Shown: positions 31,581 to 36,690, counted from the stretch's first letter. The stretch: 64,000 nucleotides of DNA from Corallococcus exercitus (GCF_042231735.1 NZ_CP102577.1:2911281-2975280); one strand, 5' to 3'. The notes: generated by a model not told the origin, from the sequence alone. Translations and numbers: made by a program.

Positions 31581-31994
31581 CTATTCCGGCCGTGGCCGCC
31601 GGTAAGTGGCGAGAATGACAGGGACCGCCACCCCTGTCACCAGAAGTGCCTGCGCCAGCAGCACCGCCGGCAGCGGGCGCTGCACGTGCACGTACAGCGA
31701 GCGGCCAAGCCCCACCCCCAACAGGACGCCTGTCAGCGTGCGCAGCCAGTTGGAACCGGACGCGGGCCGGAAGCGTCCCACCGCCCAGTCCACCAGCGCG
31801 GGCAGCGTGAGGGCCAGCACCACCGGCACGTCCCGCTCCCACTGGAGCGGCGCCTTCAGCGCGAACAGCCCCAGGAACACGGCGGCGAGCACCGGGTACG
31901 TGCCCAGGCACCGCGCGCACACGCGCACGCCCGCGAGCACGTACGTGCGGTTGTACTCATCCGGGTGATGATGGCTGAGCCAGAACACCGGCAC
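31581..31994 (-). CDS. DUF2085 family membrane protein
   Basis: [28 protein letters not shown] signature; probable GTG start (31994/31988) overlapping 3' end of upstream ABC gene. Confidence 0.5.
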
Positions 31995-33012
31995 CTCCCG
32001 CGGACGCGGAAACAGAAGTCCCTTCCTGCGCGTTCCGCGAATCCCCTTCCGCCAGGAAGCACGCCGCGGCGTGGCCTCCGCCCAGCGGATACAGCGGCGG
32101 CGACTCGCGCCGGCAGCGCTCCATCGCATGGGGGCAGCGCGGGTGGAACGCGCAGCCGGTCGGCGGCGACAGGGGCGAGGGCGGCTCTCCCGGCAGGAGC
32201 AGCCGCGCGCGGGGACGCTCCGGATCCGGCACCGGCACCGCGGACAGCAGGGCCTGCGTGTACGGATGGCGAGGCCCGGCGTACAGCGCCCGCGACGGCG
32301 CCACCTCCACGATGCGCCCCAGGTACATCACCGCCACGCGCGTGGACACGTACTCCACAATCTTCAGGTCGTGCGCGATGAAGACGTAGGTGAGCCCGCG
32401 CTCGCGCTGCAGGTCCACCAGCAGGTTGACGATCTGCGCCTGGATGGAGACGTCCAGCGCGCTGATGGGCTCGTCCGCCACCACCAGGTCCGGACGCAAC
32501 GCGATGGCACGTGCAATGCCAATGCGTTGGCGCTGGCCGCCGGAGAACTCGTGCGGGTAGCGGTGCCGCGCCTCGCGGGGCAGCCCCATGGCGTCCAGCA
32601 GCGCCAGCACCTCGTCCTCGCGCGCCTTGCCCTTCGCGAGGCCATGGATGGCGAAGGGCTCCGCGAGGATGTCCCCCACCGTCATGCGCGGGTTGAGCGA
32701 CGCGTACGGATCCTGGAACACGAGCTGCATCTGCCGGCGCAGCGGCCGCAGCTCGCGCTGCGACAGGCCGGTCAGCTCGCGCCCGGCCACGCGGATGGAG
32801 CCGGAGGTCGGGTCGATGAGGCGCAGCACCGCGCGCCCCAGGGTGCTCTTGCCGCAGCCGCTCTCCCCCACCAGGCCCAGCGTCTCGCCCCGGGCGACGT
32901 CGAAGGACACGCCGTCCACCGCGCGCACCGTGCCGCGCGTCCGGCCCAGCCAGCCGCCCTTCACCGGGAAGTGCACCTTCAGGTCGCGCACCTGGACCAG
33001 GGGCTCGCTCAT
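31957..33012 (-). CDS. ABC transporter ATP-binding protein (OppF/DppF type); no permease or SBP gene adjacent
   Basis: Start [13 protein letters not shown] (ATGA overlap with upstream gene); Walker [10 protein letters not shown], signature FSGGQRQR, C-terminal oligopeptide-ABC extension. Confidence 0.85.
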
Positions 33013-34046
33013 GGCGCGGGCACCGGGTGATGGCAGGCGGCGGACTGGGCTCCGCGCTTGGGCTCCAGCGCGGGCGTGACGCGGGCGCACAGCTCGGTGG
33101 CGCGGTCGCAGCGGTCGCGGAACGCGCACCCGGACGGCAGCGCGCCCAGCGACGGCACCATGCCGGGGATGGCCTTCAAGCGCTGGCGTCCACCCTCCAC
33201 CGCCGCGCCCGCGTCGTGCAGCGACGGGATGGAGCGCAGCAGGCCCGCCGTGTACGGGTGCGCGGGCCGGGCGAACAGCTCGCGCACCGGGGCCTGCTCC
33301 ACGATGCGGCCCGCGTACATCACCACCACCGCGTCACAGCTCCCGGCCACCACGCCCAGGTCGTGGGTGATGAGCATCACCGCCATGCGGCGCTCGGCCT
33401 GGAGGCGCTTGAGCAGCTCCAGGATCTGGGCCTGGATGGTGACGTCCAGCGCGGTGGTGGGCTCGTCCGCGATGAGCAGCGCCGGGTCGCACGCGAGCGC
33501 CATGGCGATCATCACGCGCTGGCGCATGCCGCCGGAGAGCTGGTGCGGGTACGCGTCCACGCGCTCGCCGGGCGCGGGGATGCCCACCTGCCGGAGCATC
33601 TCCACCGCGCGCTCACGCGCCTGCGCGCGGGTGGCGCCCAGGTGCAGCCGGACGCCCTCGCCAATCTGCTCGCCCACGGTGAACACCGGGTTGAGCGACG
33701 TCATGGGCTCCTGGAAGACCATGGCCACGTGCCGGCCGCGCACGCGCCGCATCTGCTTCTCCGGCAGGGCCAGCAGGTCCTCGCCCCGGAAGCGCACCTC
33801 GCCGCCCACCACGCGGCCGGGCGGCTGGGGGACGAGCCGCATCACCGACAGCGCCGTGAGGCTCTTGCCGCAGCCGCTCTCCCCCACCACCCCCAGCGTG
33901 CCGCCAGGAGGAACGGTGAAGGACACGCCGTCCACCGCGCGCACCGTGCCGCGCGGGAGCGACAGCTGGGTGACGAGCCCCCGCACGTCCAACAGCGGGG
34001 CCGGGGCGTCTACAAGAGCCCCGGGGGACGGCGCGACGCCGGTCAC
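33009..34046 (-). CDS. ABC transporter ATP-binding protein (OppD/DppD type)
   Basis: Walker A GESGCGKS, signature LSGGMRQR, Walker [13 protein letters not shown]. Confidence 0.85.
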
Positions 34047-35047: not shown

Positions 35048-35800
35048 CTACCGCTTGACCTTGGCGAGGTATTCCTCGCGGGAGAAAACGCCCTTCTCGA
35101 TGAGCAGCTCCACCATGGCCTTCAGCGCCGCGACCTCCTTGCGCTGGACCTCCTCCACGCTCTTGAGCAGCTCCGCGGGGCTGCCGGAGGCCGCCTGACG
35201 GGGAGGCTCCGCGGGGGGAGGCGGCCGGGCCGGGGGCGCGGCGGCGGGCTTGGGGGACATGGCCACGGCGGCGGCCGGGTCCAGGTCCTTCAGGTTCTTC
35301 ACGACGGTGCGGCCCTGCGCGTCCACCACCTTGAAGTTGGTGTCCGCGTCCTCCAGCTCCGCCGTCTCCTCGTAGAGGCGCGCGAACGCCCGCGCCACGG
35401 AGGTGCGCCCCGCCACGTTGGCCACGATGCGGCACTTGGACAGGGCCCGCAGCTCGTCCAGCACCCGCACGTTGAGCGGGTCCGACATGGCGACCACGAG
35501 CGTCTTGCCGTCGTCGCGCAGCTGCAGCGGCACGACGGAGAAGTCGCGCGCCGTCTGCGCGGGAATCTTCGCCTTCACGTGCGGCGGCACCATCTGCACG
35601 GCGTCCAGGTTCACCGCCGGCATGCCGAGCTGCTTCGACAGGGCGCGCACGAGGATGTCCTCGGAGACGAGGTTCATGCGGACGAGGATCTCGCCCAGCT
35701 TCCCGCCCCACTTGGCCTGCTCGGCGAGCGCCGCCTTGAGCTGGCTCTCCTGCAGGACGTTCGCCTTGATCAGCAGTTCTCCGAGCTTGATCTGTGCCAT
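35048..35800 (-). CDS. Standalone T2SSE_N/MshEN-domain protein, paralogue of preceding gene
   Basis: KLGELLIKANVLQESQLKAALAEQAKWGGKLGEILVRMNLVSEDILVRALSKQ; same architecture and similar C-terminal helix. Confidence 0.7.
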   Translation of the reverse strand: MAQIKLGELLIKANVLQESQLKAALAEQAKWGGKLGEILVRMNLVSEDILVRALSKQLGMPAVNLDAVQMVPPHVKAKIPAQTARDFSVVPLQLRDDGKTLVVAMSDPLNVRVLDELRALSKCRIVANVAGRTSVARAFARLYEETAELEDADTNFKVVDAQGRTVVKNLKDLDPAAAVAMSPKPAAAPPARPPPPAEPPRQAASGSPAELLKSVEEVQRKEVAALKAMVELLIEKGVFSREEYLAKVKR

Positions 35801-35859
35801 GTCGTGCGCGCCATAGTACCCGGTTTGCGCCGGTGTGCTGCCTTTCGACGCCTGGATGC

Positions 35860-36690
35860 TCAGGAACCCGGCGCGGGGGGCGGGGGCGACACCGGCCCCC
35901 CCGAGCGGACTTCCTGGCCCCGTGCGTCGACGTCCACCACCCGGGCCCCCTCGGGCGCCCCCAGCTCATAGAGCGTCAGGTCCGGGCGGCCGTTGAGGCG
36001 GATGTCCGTGTACTTCAGGTCCAGCTTCGTGTCCGCCGTGGAGGCGATGAGGTGCACCTTGCCGGGGAAGAGCTGGTCGCCGCGCGGCTCGAAGTCCTCG
36101 AACGCCAGGTCGTAGCCCGGCACGCCCCGGACCTCGCTCTTCACCACGCGCAGGTGCTTGGGATCCACGCGGAGTGTCTGCGTCGCGGCTCCCCGCTGGA
36201 GCTTCAGCACGTACACCCGCTCCTGCTCGTCCAGCTCCAGGGTCATGGACTCCGGGGGTAGGAGGGGGACCTGGCCCAGCATCACCGCCACCAGCTCCTC
36301 GCTCGGCAGGACGACGGGCAGGAAGCGGGACACGTTCTCCGCGCTCGCAGGGCCCTGGAGGTATGTGTTCTCCCGCGCCTGGTAGACGCCGAAGCGCTCA
36401 CCGTCGGAGACGAGCGAGGCCACCGGGCGGTTGAAGAAGTCGTACGTCTCCAGGTGGATGAGGGCCGGACGGGTGATGGAGAGGTACGCGGAGAGCGTGC
36501 CGCTGCCCTGGGGCGAGTCGACGTGCAGCTTGGCGTCGCCCTCCAGGTTCACGACCTTCGCCTGCCGCTCGCGCACGTGCTGGTAGAGCGTCTGGGCGTC
36601 CTCGATGCGTCCCTCTGGACCGAACTCGAGGCGTTTGGGGCAGGCCGAACAGAGGAGGGCCAGGAAGATTGCGGCGGCTGCGCGGTTCAT
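35860..36690 (-). CDS. Lipoprotein (LolB/DUF4292-like fold suspected)
   Basis: MNRAAAAIFLALLCSAC lipobox; 276 aa. Confidence 0.6.
   Translation of the reverse strand: MNRAAAAIFLALLCSACPKRLEFGPEGRIEDAQTLYQHVRERQAKVVNLEGDAKLHVDSPQGSGTLSAYLSITRPALIHLETYDFFNRPVASLVSDGERFGVYQARENTYLQGPASAENVSRFLPVVLPSEELVAVMLGQVPLLPPESMTLELDEQERVYVLKLQRGAATQTLRVDPKHLRVVKSEVRGVPGYDLAFEDFEPRGDQLFPGKVHLIASTADTKLDLKYTDIRLNGRPDLTLYELGAPEGARVVDVDARGQEVRSGGPVSPPPPAPGS

Follow-up and report, generated by a model that had tools for sequence, protein, structure and literature searches.

What controls the Tad-like killing apparatus of predatory myxobacteria, and are the conserved genes directly upstream of one of its gene clusters part of that control? 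The question is raised by a 64,000-nucleotide stretch of the Corallococcus exercitus genome (GCF_042231735.1 NZ_CP102577.1:2911281-2975280; hereafter, the window), in which two stand-alone MshEN-domain proteins, MshEN-A and MshEN-B, are encoded together with two Opp-type ATP-binding cassette (ABC) ATPases, a DUF2085 membrane protein and an extracytoplasmic function (ECF) sigma factor with an adjoining anti-sigma factor, just before the genes of a Kil-type Tad machine. The Kil system is a Tad-like apparatus needed for contact-dependent prey killing in Myxococcus xanthus, and its cluster II comprises MXAN_4648-4661 according to the Kil papers (gene names from Seef 2021). According to the Kil authors, neither the sensory input to the system nor the cues that set where it assembles are known, and both might be encoded among the clusters' uncharacterised genes. 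We propose, with about even confidence, that the region is a regulatory cassette directly upstream of Kil cluster II and that its MshEN pair would serve as a cyclic di-GMP (c-di-GMP) input dedicated to the Kil machine. This proposal, like all functional statements made here, rests on sequence and gene neighbourhood.

Genetic organization of the region

The window has a G+C content of about 72%, and reading frames were picked by their third-position G+C (GC3). GC3 values of 0.85-0.96 back the reading frames of the genes described below, all on the minus strand; those that a first-pass annotation had described from the sequence alone are all present at its coordinates. MshEN-A (35048-35800, 250 aa; Pfam MshEN, 56.1 bits) is followed by its paralogue MshEN-B (34043-35038, 331 aa; Pfam MshEN, 47.3 bits), an OppD/DppD-like ABC ATPase (33009-34046, 345 aa) and an OppF/DppF-like ABC ATPase (31957-33012, 351 aa), both matching Pfam ABC_tran and oligo_HPY, and a DUF2085 membrane protein (31581-31988, 135 aa; Pfam DUF2085, 40 bits). 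The block had been thought to end there. Nevertheless, it continues with the ECF sigma factor (30869-31549; Pfam Sigma70_r2/r4), whose start is either GTG 31549 or ATG 31516, and with a membrane anti-sigma factor (29436-30872; Pfam zf-HC2, motif HVQGCARC), whose counterparts belong to the same predicted operon in M. xanthus.

The packing of the cassette genes is operon-like. The gap between MshEN-A and MshEN-B is 9 nt, the OppD/OppF and sigma/anti-sigma junctions are ATGA overlaps, and the DUF2085 gene shares 32 nt with oppF, its GTG start at 31988 being preceded by a GGGAGG site. The ATGA overlaps reported for the ATPases in the first-pass annotation thus hold for OppD/OppF, but the MshEN-B/OppD junction is GTGA.

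Downstream of the anti-sigma gene, the window carries a Flp-type pilin open reading frame (ORF; 29116-29418, cleavage motif G/AMVEY), KilB (CpaB/RcpC; 28064-28882), the two T2SSF platform proteins KilG (27141-27986) and KilH (26237-27127), all three assigned by Pfam and named after Seef 2021, and two FHA-domain proteins (23308-26163 and 21532-23280; Pfam FHA / Yop-YscD_cpl), which close Kil cluster II on this side. KilB, KilG, KilH, the two FHA proteins and the zf-HC2 gene stand in the published order. The Flp-type ORF, which encodes a prepilin with the sequence …RRGQ/AMVEYS…, is conserved in the Corallococcus loci. The stretch in which it lies, from the anti-sigma gene to kilB, spans about 550 bp in Corallococcus, compared with eight genes, MXAN_4653-4660, in M. 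xanthus; no homologue of these eight genes, which include the Tip4 minor pilins KilL4, KilM4 and KilN4, was found anywhere in the window.

The M. xanthus locus matches the order of the window from MXAN_4668 to MXAN_4658: a lipoprotein (MXAN_4668), two MshEN proteins (MXAN_4667 and MXAN_4666), two ABC ATPases (MXAN_4665 and MXAN_4664), DUF2085 (MXAN_4663), sigma (MXAN_4662) and a zinc finger protein (MXAN_4661), followed by KilM4, KilN4 and KilL4. The anti-sigma factor of the window corresponds to MXAN_4661, the "zinc finger" gene at which the published Kil cluster II stops, so that the six genes upstream of it were excluded. MXAN_4667 (M. xanthus protein P0026) is the orthologue of MshEN-A, which is 86% identical to it in strain DK1622 and 98% identical to a Corallococcus protein, and MXAN_4666 is the orthologue of MshEN-B. 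A look-up of the exact MshEN-A sequence returned no record. These two proteins, and MXAN_4665-4661 with them, are direct orthologues in the same order, known from catalogues only, with no link to Kil found in the literature searched: Wang 2016 and Kuzmich 2022 both count MXAN_4666/4667 among the MshEN proteins. As the first-pass annotation had supposed, no role has been described for these genes. MXAN_4662-4667 are named in no main text within the literature searched, in which no mutants are reported for MXAN_4662-4668 and no mutant, binding or localisation data were found for MXAN_4666/4667. Neither c-di-GMP nor MshEN, ABC or sigma comes up in the Kil papers, and MXAN_4662-4667 are not among the entries in the examined part of a predation/development transcriptome supplement.

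The first-pass annotation had also read the MshEN proteins as domains detached from the ATPase of a pilus module that lacks one. The Kil ATPase is KilF, which is homologous to CpaF, has an FHA domain at its N-terminus and is encoded in cluster I; therefore, the "missing ATPase" is a known feature of the system and not a detached MshEN ATPase. Stand-alone MshEN proteins are, moreover, common, 17-22 of them having been counted in M. xanthus.

Conservation of the MshEN pair upstream of Kil-type Tad genes

About 140 related loci were compared in all. A genome scan with MshEN-A gave 59 loci from Corallococcus, Myxococcus, Pyxidicoccus, Citreicoccus, Hyalangium, Archangium, Cystobacter, Vitiosangium and related metagenome-assembled genomes, and a metagenome scan seeded with distant members of the subfamily gave 80. 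Every long-enough locus among the 59, and hence every such locus of the cultured Myxococcaceae and Archangiaceae sampled, keeps one order: exbD-exbB, then lipoprotein-MshEN-A-MshEN-B-OppD-OppF-DUF2085-(insert)-sigma-anti-sigma. The genes that come after the anti-sigma factor vary, being Flp-CpaB-TadB-TadC-FHA as in the window, Tip4 minor pilins first (Myxococcus) or pilin genes on the opposite strand (Archangium). Among the 57 loci with at least 9 kb of downstream sequence, a second MshEN gene was present in 54, sigma in 53, the ABC ATPases in 47, DUF2085 in 45 and Tad/Kil genes in 42; the 16 divergent loci among them kept sigma in 13 cases, Tad/Kil genes in 11 and the ABC ATPases in 6.

The divergent metagenomic lineages that carry the MshEN pair upstream of CpaB-TadB-TadC-FHA have MshEN-A proteins 37-50% identical to that of the window. 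In one group (group X, e.g. L088, L092, L097, L115, L123 and L140; MshEN-A 45-50% identical), the order is lipoprotein-MshEN-A-long-linker MshEN-B-HD-GYP-like-sigma-anti-sigma-CpaB-TadB-TadC-FHA, and the ABC ATPases and DUF2085 are absent. In another two loci (L082 and L093), the order is PilZ-MshEN-A-MshEN-B-zinc-ribbon protein-CpaB-TadB-TadC-FHA, with neither sigma nor ABC ATPases; the C-terminal hairpins of both MshEN proteins, described below, are still recognisable there, and therefore their binding partner would not be OppDF, DUF2085 or sigma. The link between MshEN proteins and the Tad machine that the first-pass annotation had suggested is in this way strengthened, since the pair stands upstream of CpaB-TadB-TadC-FHA both in Myxococcaceae and in divergent lineages without ABC, DUF2085 or sigma genes.

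Kil-type genes adjoin the cassette in crown, State-1, group X and L082/L093 loci.

Genes of c-di-GMP signalling recur near these loci. The HD-GYP-like protein of group X (L123, about 11180-12082) carries HHxRxGFGYP; its Pfam HD_5 score, 24.6 bits, falls slightly short of the 27.2-bit cutoff. In the window, a REC-HD-GYP protein (42459-43580, plus strand; Pfam HD_5, 120 bits), likely a c-di-GMP phosphodiesterase, is encoded about 6 kb from the MshEN genes; its gene corresponds by position to MXAN_4675, and a REC-HD_5 gene is likewise placed in M. xanthus and L062. The recurrent PilZ, HD-GYP-like and REC-HD-GYP genes fit a c-di-GMP theme and are no proof of it. Signalling genes beside divergent MshEN pairs also include a PP2C phosphatase-cNMP-binding fusion (L092, 7834-9123) and a PilZ protein (L082, 9185-9883).

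The MshEN domain, its motif and its tail

Both proteins pass the Pfam MshEN (PF05157) cutoff of 23.1 bits and align over about 145 residues with the solved N-domains of PilB, PilF and MshE; they are 32% identical to each other across 140 aa. These results bear out the first-pass description of two paralogues with an MshEN domain, a Pro-rich linker and a conserved C-terminal helix, the tail being a helical hairpin. In MshEN-A, the half-motifs (aa 5-28 and 34-57, separated by the spacer AKWGG) precede a linker rich in Pro and Ala (about aa 170-207), and the hairpin occupies aa 208-249. MshEN-B has a degenerate first half-motif; its Pro-rich linker is long, and its C-terminal hairpin is conserved. 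Compared with the Vibrio cholerae MshE N-domain (PDB 5HTL), the Thermus thermophilus PilF GSPII domains and PilB, the proteins of the window share the fold family, by sequence, and the tandem 24-residue half-motifs, but they have no fused ATPase and carry a disordered linker and a C-terminal helical hairpin instead.

The hairpins match no Pfam family, even at E = 10. A search with the MshEN-A hairpin against 1.84 billion representatives gave 85 clusters at 50% identity, in which it always lies at the extreme C-terminus, and an N-terminal MshEN domain was present in all ten of the most divergent full-length matches tested. Across 35 orthologues from several genera, the N-terminal 58 aa and the C-terminal 40 aa of MshEN-A are invariant. 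The MshEN-B linker differs in length among loci (L062, 12793-15267; L066, 5761-8256; L069, L123 and L140), from about 150 residues up to more than 750, in proteins of about 280-940 aa. It is Pro/Ala- or acid-rich, and the two ends of the protein are conserved, as fits a flexible tether. MshEN-A and MshEN-B belong to a distinct, apparently undescribed subfamily of predicted c-di-GMP receptors, built of an MshEN domain, a disordered linker and a C-terminal hairpin.

Does the domain still bind c-di-GMP? The first-pass annotation had credited both proteins with the complete tandem motif. In favour of binding, both match the NCBIfam c-di-GMP_motif profile NF053729 over all of its 53 positions (1-53), with 64.8 bits for MshEN-A and 59.3 bits for MshEN-B against a cutoff of 38 bits. 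On the other hand, the motif, though near the canonical one, is incomplete: substitutions are present, and both proteins fail the published relaxed motif, which consists of two copies of [RKPN]hGxxhhxx[GAS]hhxxxxhxxxhxx[QNKRYWST], 24 residues each, with a 5-residue spacer. In both half-motifs of MshEN-A, Lys replaces Arg and Asn replaces the turn Gly; only the Asn, at position 10, departs from the relaxed motif, in both copies, and the spacer has 5 residues. MshEN-B departs from it at position 24 of motif 1 (Gly for the last Gln) and at position 12 of motif 2 (Cys), and its spacer has 6 residues.

Based on these substitutions, it could be argued that the MshEN domains of the crown Myxococcaceae are degenerate, have lost c-di-GMP binding and act as nucleotide-independent scaffolds or adaptors, the more so because a few such substitutions abolished binding in XpsE (Wang et al.). 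In this reading, both half-motifs of MshEN-A have Asn or Lys at the conserved turn Gly, and MshEN-B of Corallococcus has a spacer of 6-7 residues. We regard this as very improbable. The Lys at motif position 1 is permitted by the relaxed motif, both proteins score above the curated NCBIfam cutoff, and the invariance of the 58 N-terminal residues of MshEN-A across genera indicates a selected ligand site. Additionally, Wang et al. list MXAN_4666/4667 apart from FrgA, PulE, MXAN_1145 and MXAN_4627, in columns that we take to be those of likely and unlikely binders, the part of the table consulted being without its headers. In distant members of the subfamily, the motif is the canonical RLG…G…Q, twice, with a 5-residue spacer.

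Transcription of the cassette and the sigma/anti-sigma pair

The first-pass annotation treated the region as the upstream half of a single operon of about 15 kb starting at the lipoprotein gene. Cappable-seq data for M. xanthus do not support this: the predicted operon ("Operon 24") is MXAN_4667-4661. A strong start site maps 5 nt ahead of MXAN_4667, and the sigma gene has another, active at all time points, 66 nt upstream. The MXAN_4668 lipoprotein gene lies upstream of the mapped transcription start. In the window, a putative operon promoter was read from the sequence as the -10-like hexamer TACTAT (35813-35818, minus strand), 12 nt upstream of the MshEN-A ATG. Its M. xanthus counterpart in the alignment is TAGAGT, and its position matches that of the mapped start site there. 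In Hyalangium- and Archangium-type loci (L022, L026, L029, L031, L036, L042 and L044), an extra GC-rich, hairpin-prone segment of about 35 nt lies between the -10-like hexamer and the MshEN-A start. It is missing from Corallococcus and Myxococcus, in which the transcript would be nearly leaderless.

The ECF sigma factor has Sigma70 regions 2 and 4 and matches NCBIfam PRK12513 with 270 bits (cutoff, 206). The adjoining gene encodes an anti-sigma factor of the membrane zinc-associated anti-sigma (ZAS) type, with an H-x3-C-x2-C motif and a large periplasmic part. The presence of this pair raises the possibility that the cassette acts in transcription only, c-di-GMP-loaded MshEN proteins, possibly with OppDF and DUF2085, controlling the sigma/anti-sigma pair, which in turn would drive Kil cluster II as a c-di-GMP-gated sigma switch. 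This alternative is rather unlikely in our judgement. It agrees with the position of sigma and anti-sigma after the MshEN genes in 53 of the 57 loci with enough flank and with their place inside the operon predicted for the MshEN genes in M. xanthus. It also agrees with three loci without nearby Tad genes: L066, with an MshEN gene, a fused ABC pair, DUF2085 and sigma/anti-sigma, and L069/L078, with MshEN-A-MshEN-B-two short, tail-less ABC nucleotide-binding domains (NBDs)-sigma. Sequestration of a sigma factor in dependence on c-di-GMP is known from Streptomyces, in the case of RsiG and sigma-WhiG. Nevertheless, L082 and L093 keep both MshEN proteins with their hairpins upstream of CpaB-TadBC-FHA and have no sigma gene. 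Moreover, the large periplasmic part of the ZAS anti-sigma factor suggests an envelope rather than a cytoplasmic input, and the sigma gene has a start site of its own that is active throughout.

Orphan OppD/OppF ATPases and their ancestry

Both ATPases are intact in sequence. OppD has its Walker A, Q-loop, LSGGMRQR, Walker B and H-loop and aligns end to end with Mycobacterium tuberculosis OppD Rv1281c (E = 3e-122), and OppF has all catalytic motifs and passes NCBIfam NF008453 (414.8 bits; cutoff, 408). Each carries a Cys tail, C-x5-C-x6-C-x17-C (OppD, 33033-33128; OppF, 32059-32154), which is spaced as the [4Fe-4S] ligands of Escherichia coli DppD and is a putative cluster site. In cultured relatives, OppD and OppF are 75-98% identical to the proteins of the window, and motifs and Cys quartets are invariant in the crown loci. 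The likeness to Opp/Dpp importers with [4Fe-4S] NBDs (E. coli DppBCDF, M. tuberculosis OppABCD) is therefore full-length and extends to all motifs and the Cys spacing; the crown loci differ from these importers in having neither permease nor binding protein, two MshEN genes before oppD and a DUF2085 gene overlapping oppF. No Opp permease or binding protein was found within the 64-kb window, which extends the first-pass observation that none stands beside the ATPases.

Cognate permease and binding-protein genes are kept in just 6 of 81 related loci. Basal relatives (L055, L056, L057, L062, L065 and L086) retain the binding protein and/or OppB/OppC. The order in L055 is contiguous: binding-protein fragment-OppB-OppC-MshEN-A-MshEN-B-OppD-OppF-DUF2085-sigma-anti-sigma. 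L062 and L065 share this order, with M. xanthus-like housekeeping flanks, and L056, L057 and L086 are variants of it. Wherever the junction is visible (L055, L062 and L065), the MshEN pair lies between OppC and OppD. More distant loci, called State-0 (L063, L064 and L067), have a plain operon, DUF4292 lipoprotein-binding protein-OppB-OppC-OppD-OppF, with no MshEN, DUF2085, sigma or Tad genes. We conclude from these sequences that OppD and OppF are remnants of a complete Opp-type importer still encoded at this locus in basal relatives. The ATPases are thus orphans here, as first proposed, but they are relics of an older transporter and not newly invented.

In a neighbour-joining tree of NBD cores, built without support values and rooted on the State-0 loci, the permease-less state occupies three places: the crown, L096/L137 and L069. 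A single loss of the permeases had been considered and was dropped once more loci put this state in three places; the permeases and the binding protein were apparently lost about three times, the NBD pair being kept each time. The L096 lineage (L096, L135 and L137) is also without MshEN-B, and the short NBDs of L069/L078 have no Fe-S tail. In L065, a peptidase_M74 protein (MepA-like murein endopeptidase) with LysM is encoded between the lipoprotein and the Opp binding protein (6753-8141, minus strand), which hints that the ancestral importer handled cell-wall peptides.

Alternatively, OppD and OppF may still energise a peptide importer through distal Opp/Dpp permeases, gated by the MshEN proteins and c-di-GMP, and the proximity of the kil genes would be inherited synteny. 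In basal relatives, a complete opp operon does enclose the MshEN genes, which follow oppC and precede oppD, and the ATPases retain the catalytic motifs, the Fe-S tail and a conserved Q-loop/SLNP region of the type seen in NBDs that couple to permeases. ATPases are known to be shared between ABC importers, as in the case of MsiK. Several results make this alternative quite unlikely. The importer components were lost about three times on the unsupported tree, while the NBD and MshEN/sigma genes stayed together, and group X and L082/L093 keep the MshEN pair without any ABC genes. Additionally, a search with the L055 permease, considering the best 120 matches, returned uncultured relatives only, down to about 46-50% identity; there was no orthologue of at least about 50% identity, and no match at all, from cultured Myxococcus, Corallococcus or Archangium among them, which argues for loss over relocation.

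The DUF2085 protein and the lipoprotein

The DUF2085 protein has an N-terminal His/Cys knuckle (HHH…CARC), four transmembrane helices in an AlphaFold2 model (predicted local distance difference test, pLDDT, 84) and the invariant loop D-W-x2-G-R-F-x-P-x2-G-x-N. A Foldseek search of the model against the PDB found nothing below E = 2, and hence no solved structural relative. In the literature searched, DUF2085 gave just one expression match, in an Archangium methyl-jasmonate study. Two ideas about this protein were discarded. It was considered as a minimal transmembrane partner with an EAA-like coupling helix, but no such motif was visible by eye, the loop and the knuckle alone being conspicuous; the small protein encoded after oppF in the State-0 loci, considered as an ancestral DUF2085, is an unrelated lipoprotein.

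Upstream of MshEN-A, at a gap of 59 nt, lies the gene for a DUF4292/LolB-like outer-membrane lipoprotein (35860-36690, minus strand; Pfam DUF4292, 59.4 bits; lipobox LLCSAC). It scores 46.9 bits against the Bacteroidota model NCBIfam LolB1_Flavo, slightly below the cutoff of 50, and is hence not classed as LolB1. Although it is found upstream in 71 of the 81 related loci, this lipoprotein is probably a neighbour and not part of the operon. In the State-0 loci, it heads the plain opp operon, suggesting an old link between a LolB-like protein and the importer.

Proposed role of the cassette

The reading that we prefer is the one given at the outset, a c-di-GMP input to the Kil machine. MshEN-A and MshEN-B would be c-di-GMP receptors that act as tethered adaptors, in which a flexible linker joins a sensor domain to a docking hairpin, and would couple the c-di-GMP level to the assembly or activity of the Kil machine. 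The hairpins may touch each other or, directly, the platform, FHA or ATPase components; direct contact is favoured because the hairpins are conserved in loci that have no sigma, ABC ATPase or DUF2085 genes at all. The ECF sigma/anti-sigma pair probably supplies a transcriptional layer of control. In the weakest step of the proposal, OppD/OppF and DUF2085 would most likely form an ATP-dependent, perhaps redox-dependent, regulatory unit that no longer needs permeases of its own. There are precedents for control of this kind: in MalK-MalT and RsiG-sigma-WhiG, a transcription factor is sequestered, and so controlled, by an NBD or by a protein that binds c-di-GMP. Neither pair is homologous to the cassette proteins, and the comparison is one of analogy.

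Several observations weigh against the preferred reading. Within a single bacterial lineage, genes may stay neighbours by descent although no function ties them together. No Tad genes lie within 5 kb of the MshEN genes of L069/L078, and in L116, L118 and L121 a single family member stands in an unrelated context, with no other cassette genes. MXAN_4666/4667 are reported to be expressed in growing cells, with a slight fall in development, whereas the kil genes of clusters 1 and 2 are reported to be starvation-induced, so co-regulation is not evident. The departures of MshEN-A and MshEN-B from the relaxed motif fall at conserved positions, and the AlphaFold2 model of MshEN-A is poor (pLDDT 51; shallow alignment). 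As for the ATPases, the NBD tree lacks support values, and OppDF could have a divergent distal partner beyond the best 120 permease matches.

A further, more speculative extension, which we consider doubtful, is that the MshEN pair acts in trans as a c-di-GMP-dependent licensing and positioning factor of Kil, replacing both the absent TadZ and the in-cis MshEN domain of type IVa pilus and type II secretion ATPases. The hairpins would then dock on KilG/KilH, the FHA proteins or KilF, and the permease-less OppDF-DUF2085 unit would be a novel type of Fe-S/ATP-dependent membrane signalling ATPase, kept through several apparent permease losses owing to its contribution to this decision, for instance as a sensor of the oxidative burst of prey lysis. 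TadZ/CpaE of classical Tad systems is a cytoplasmic accessory factor that sets the place and time of assembly; to place the MshEN pair in that role is speculation. The MshEN fold is unrelated to TadZ/CpaE, and no TadZ homologue is named in the portion of the Kil cluster accounts consulted.

The component families, namely MshEN, Opp-type NBDs, the ECF/ZAS pair, DUF4292 and DUF2085, are already known. The long-standing tie of this MshEN subfamily to Kil-type Tad genes and the relic status of the ATPases appear to be undescribed.

Other genes in the window

Beyond the FHA genes lie xseA, xseB, a response regulator gene and dxs, and on the other flank of the locus stand the divergent exbB and exbD. 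A 585-aa ORF (13812-15569, plus strand) shows a strong coding-type G+C bias and is overlapped by high-GC3 antisense ORFs; it has no Pfam match at E <= 1e-5. Apparently unrelated to the cassette are a CheA-CheW fusion with a globin-PAS-coupled methyl-accepting chemotaxis protein (55064-59900, plus strand) and a GAF hybrid histidine kinase (11057-13570, minus strand).

Significance

Contact-dependent killing by predatory myxobacteria relies centrally on the Kil apparatus, and the six conserved genes just beyond the published boundary of its cluster II are concrete candidates for the control input of the machine. As MXAN_4662-4667 in the tractable M. xanthus, they turn the open question of Kil control into specific experiments. 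Additionally, the apparent repeated loss of permeases beside an intact Fe-S ABC pair would be a natural case of ATPases outliving their transporter, and the permease-less OppDF bears on how ABC NBDs may be recruited for signalling.

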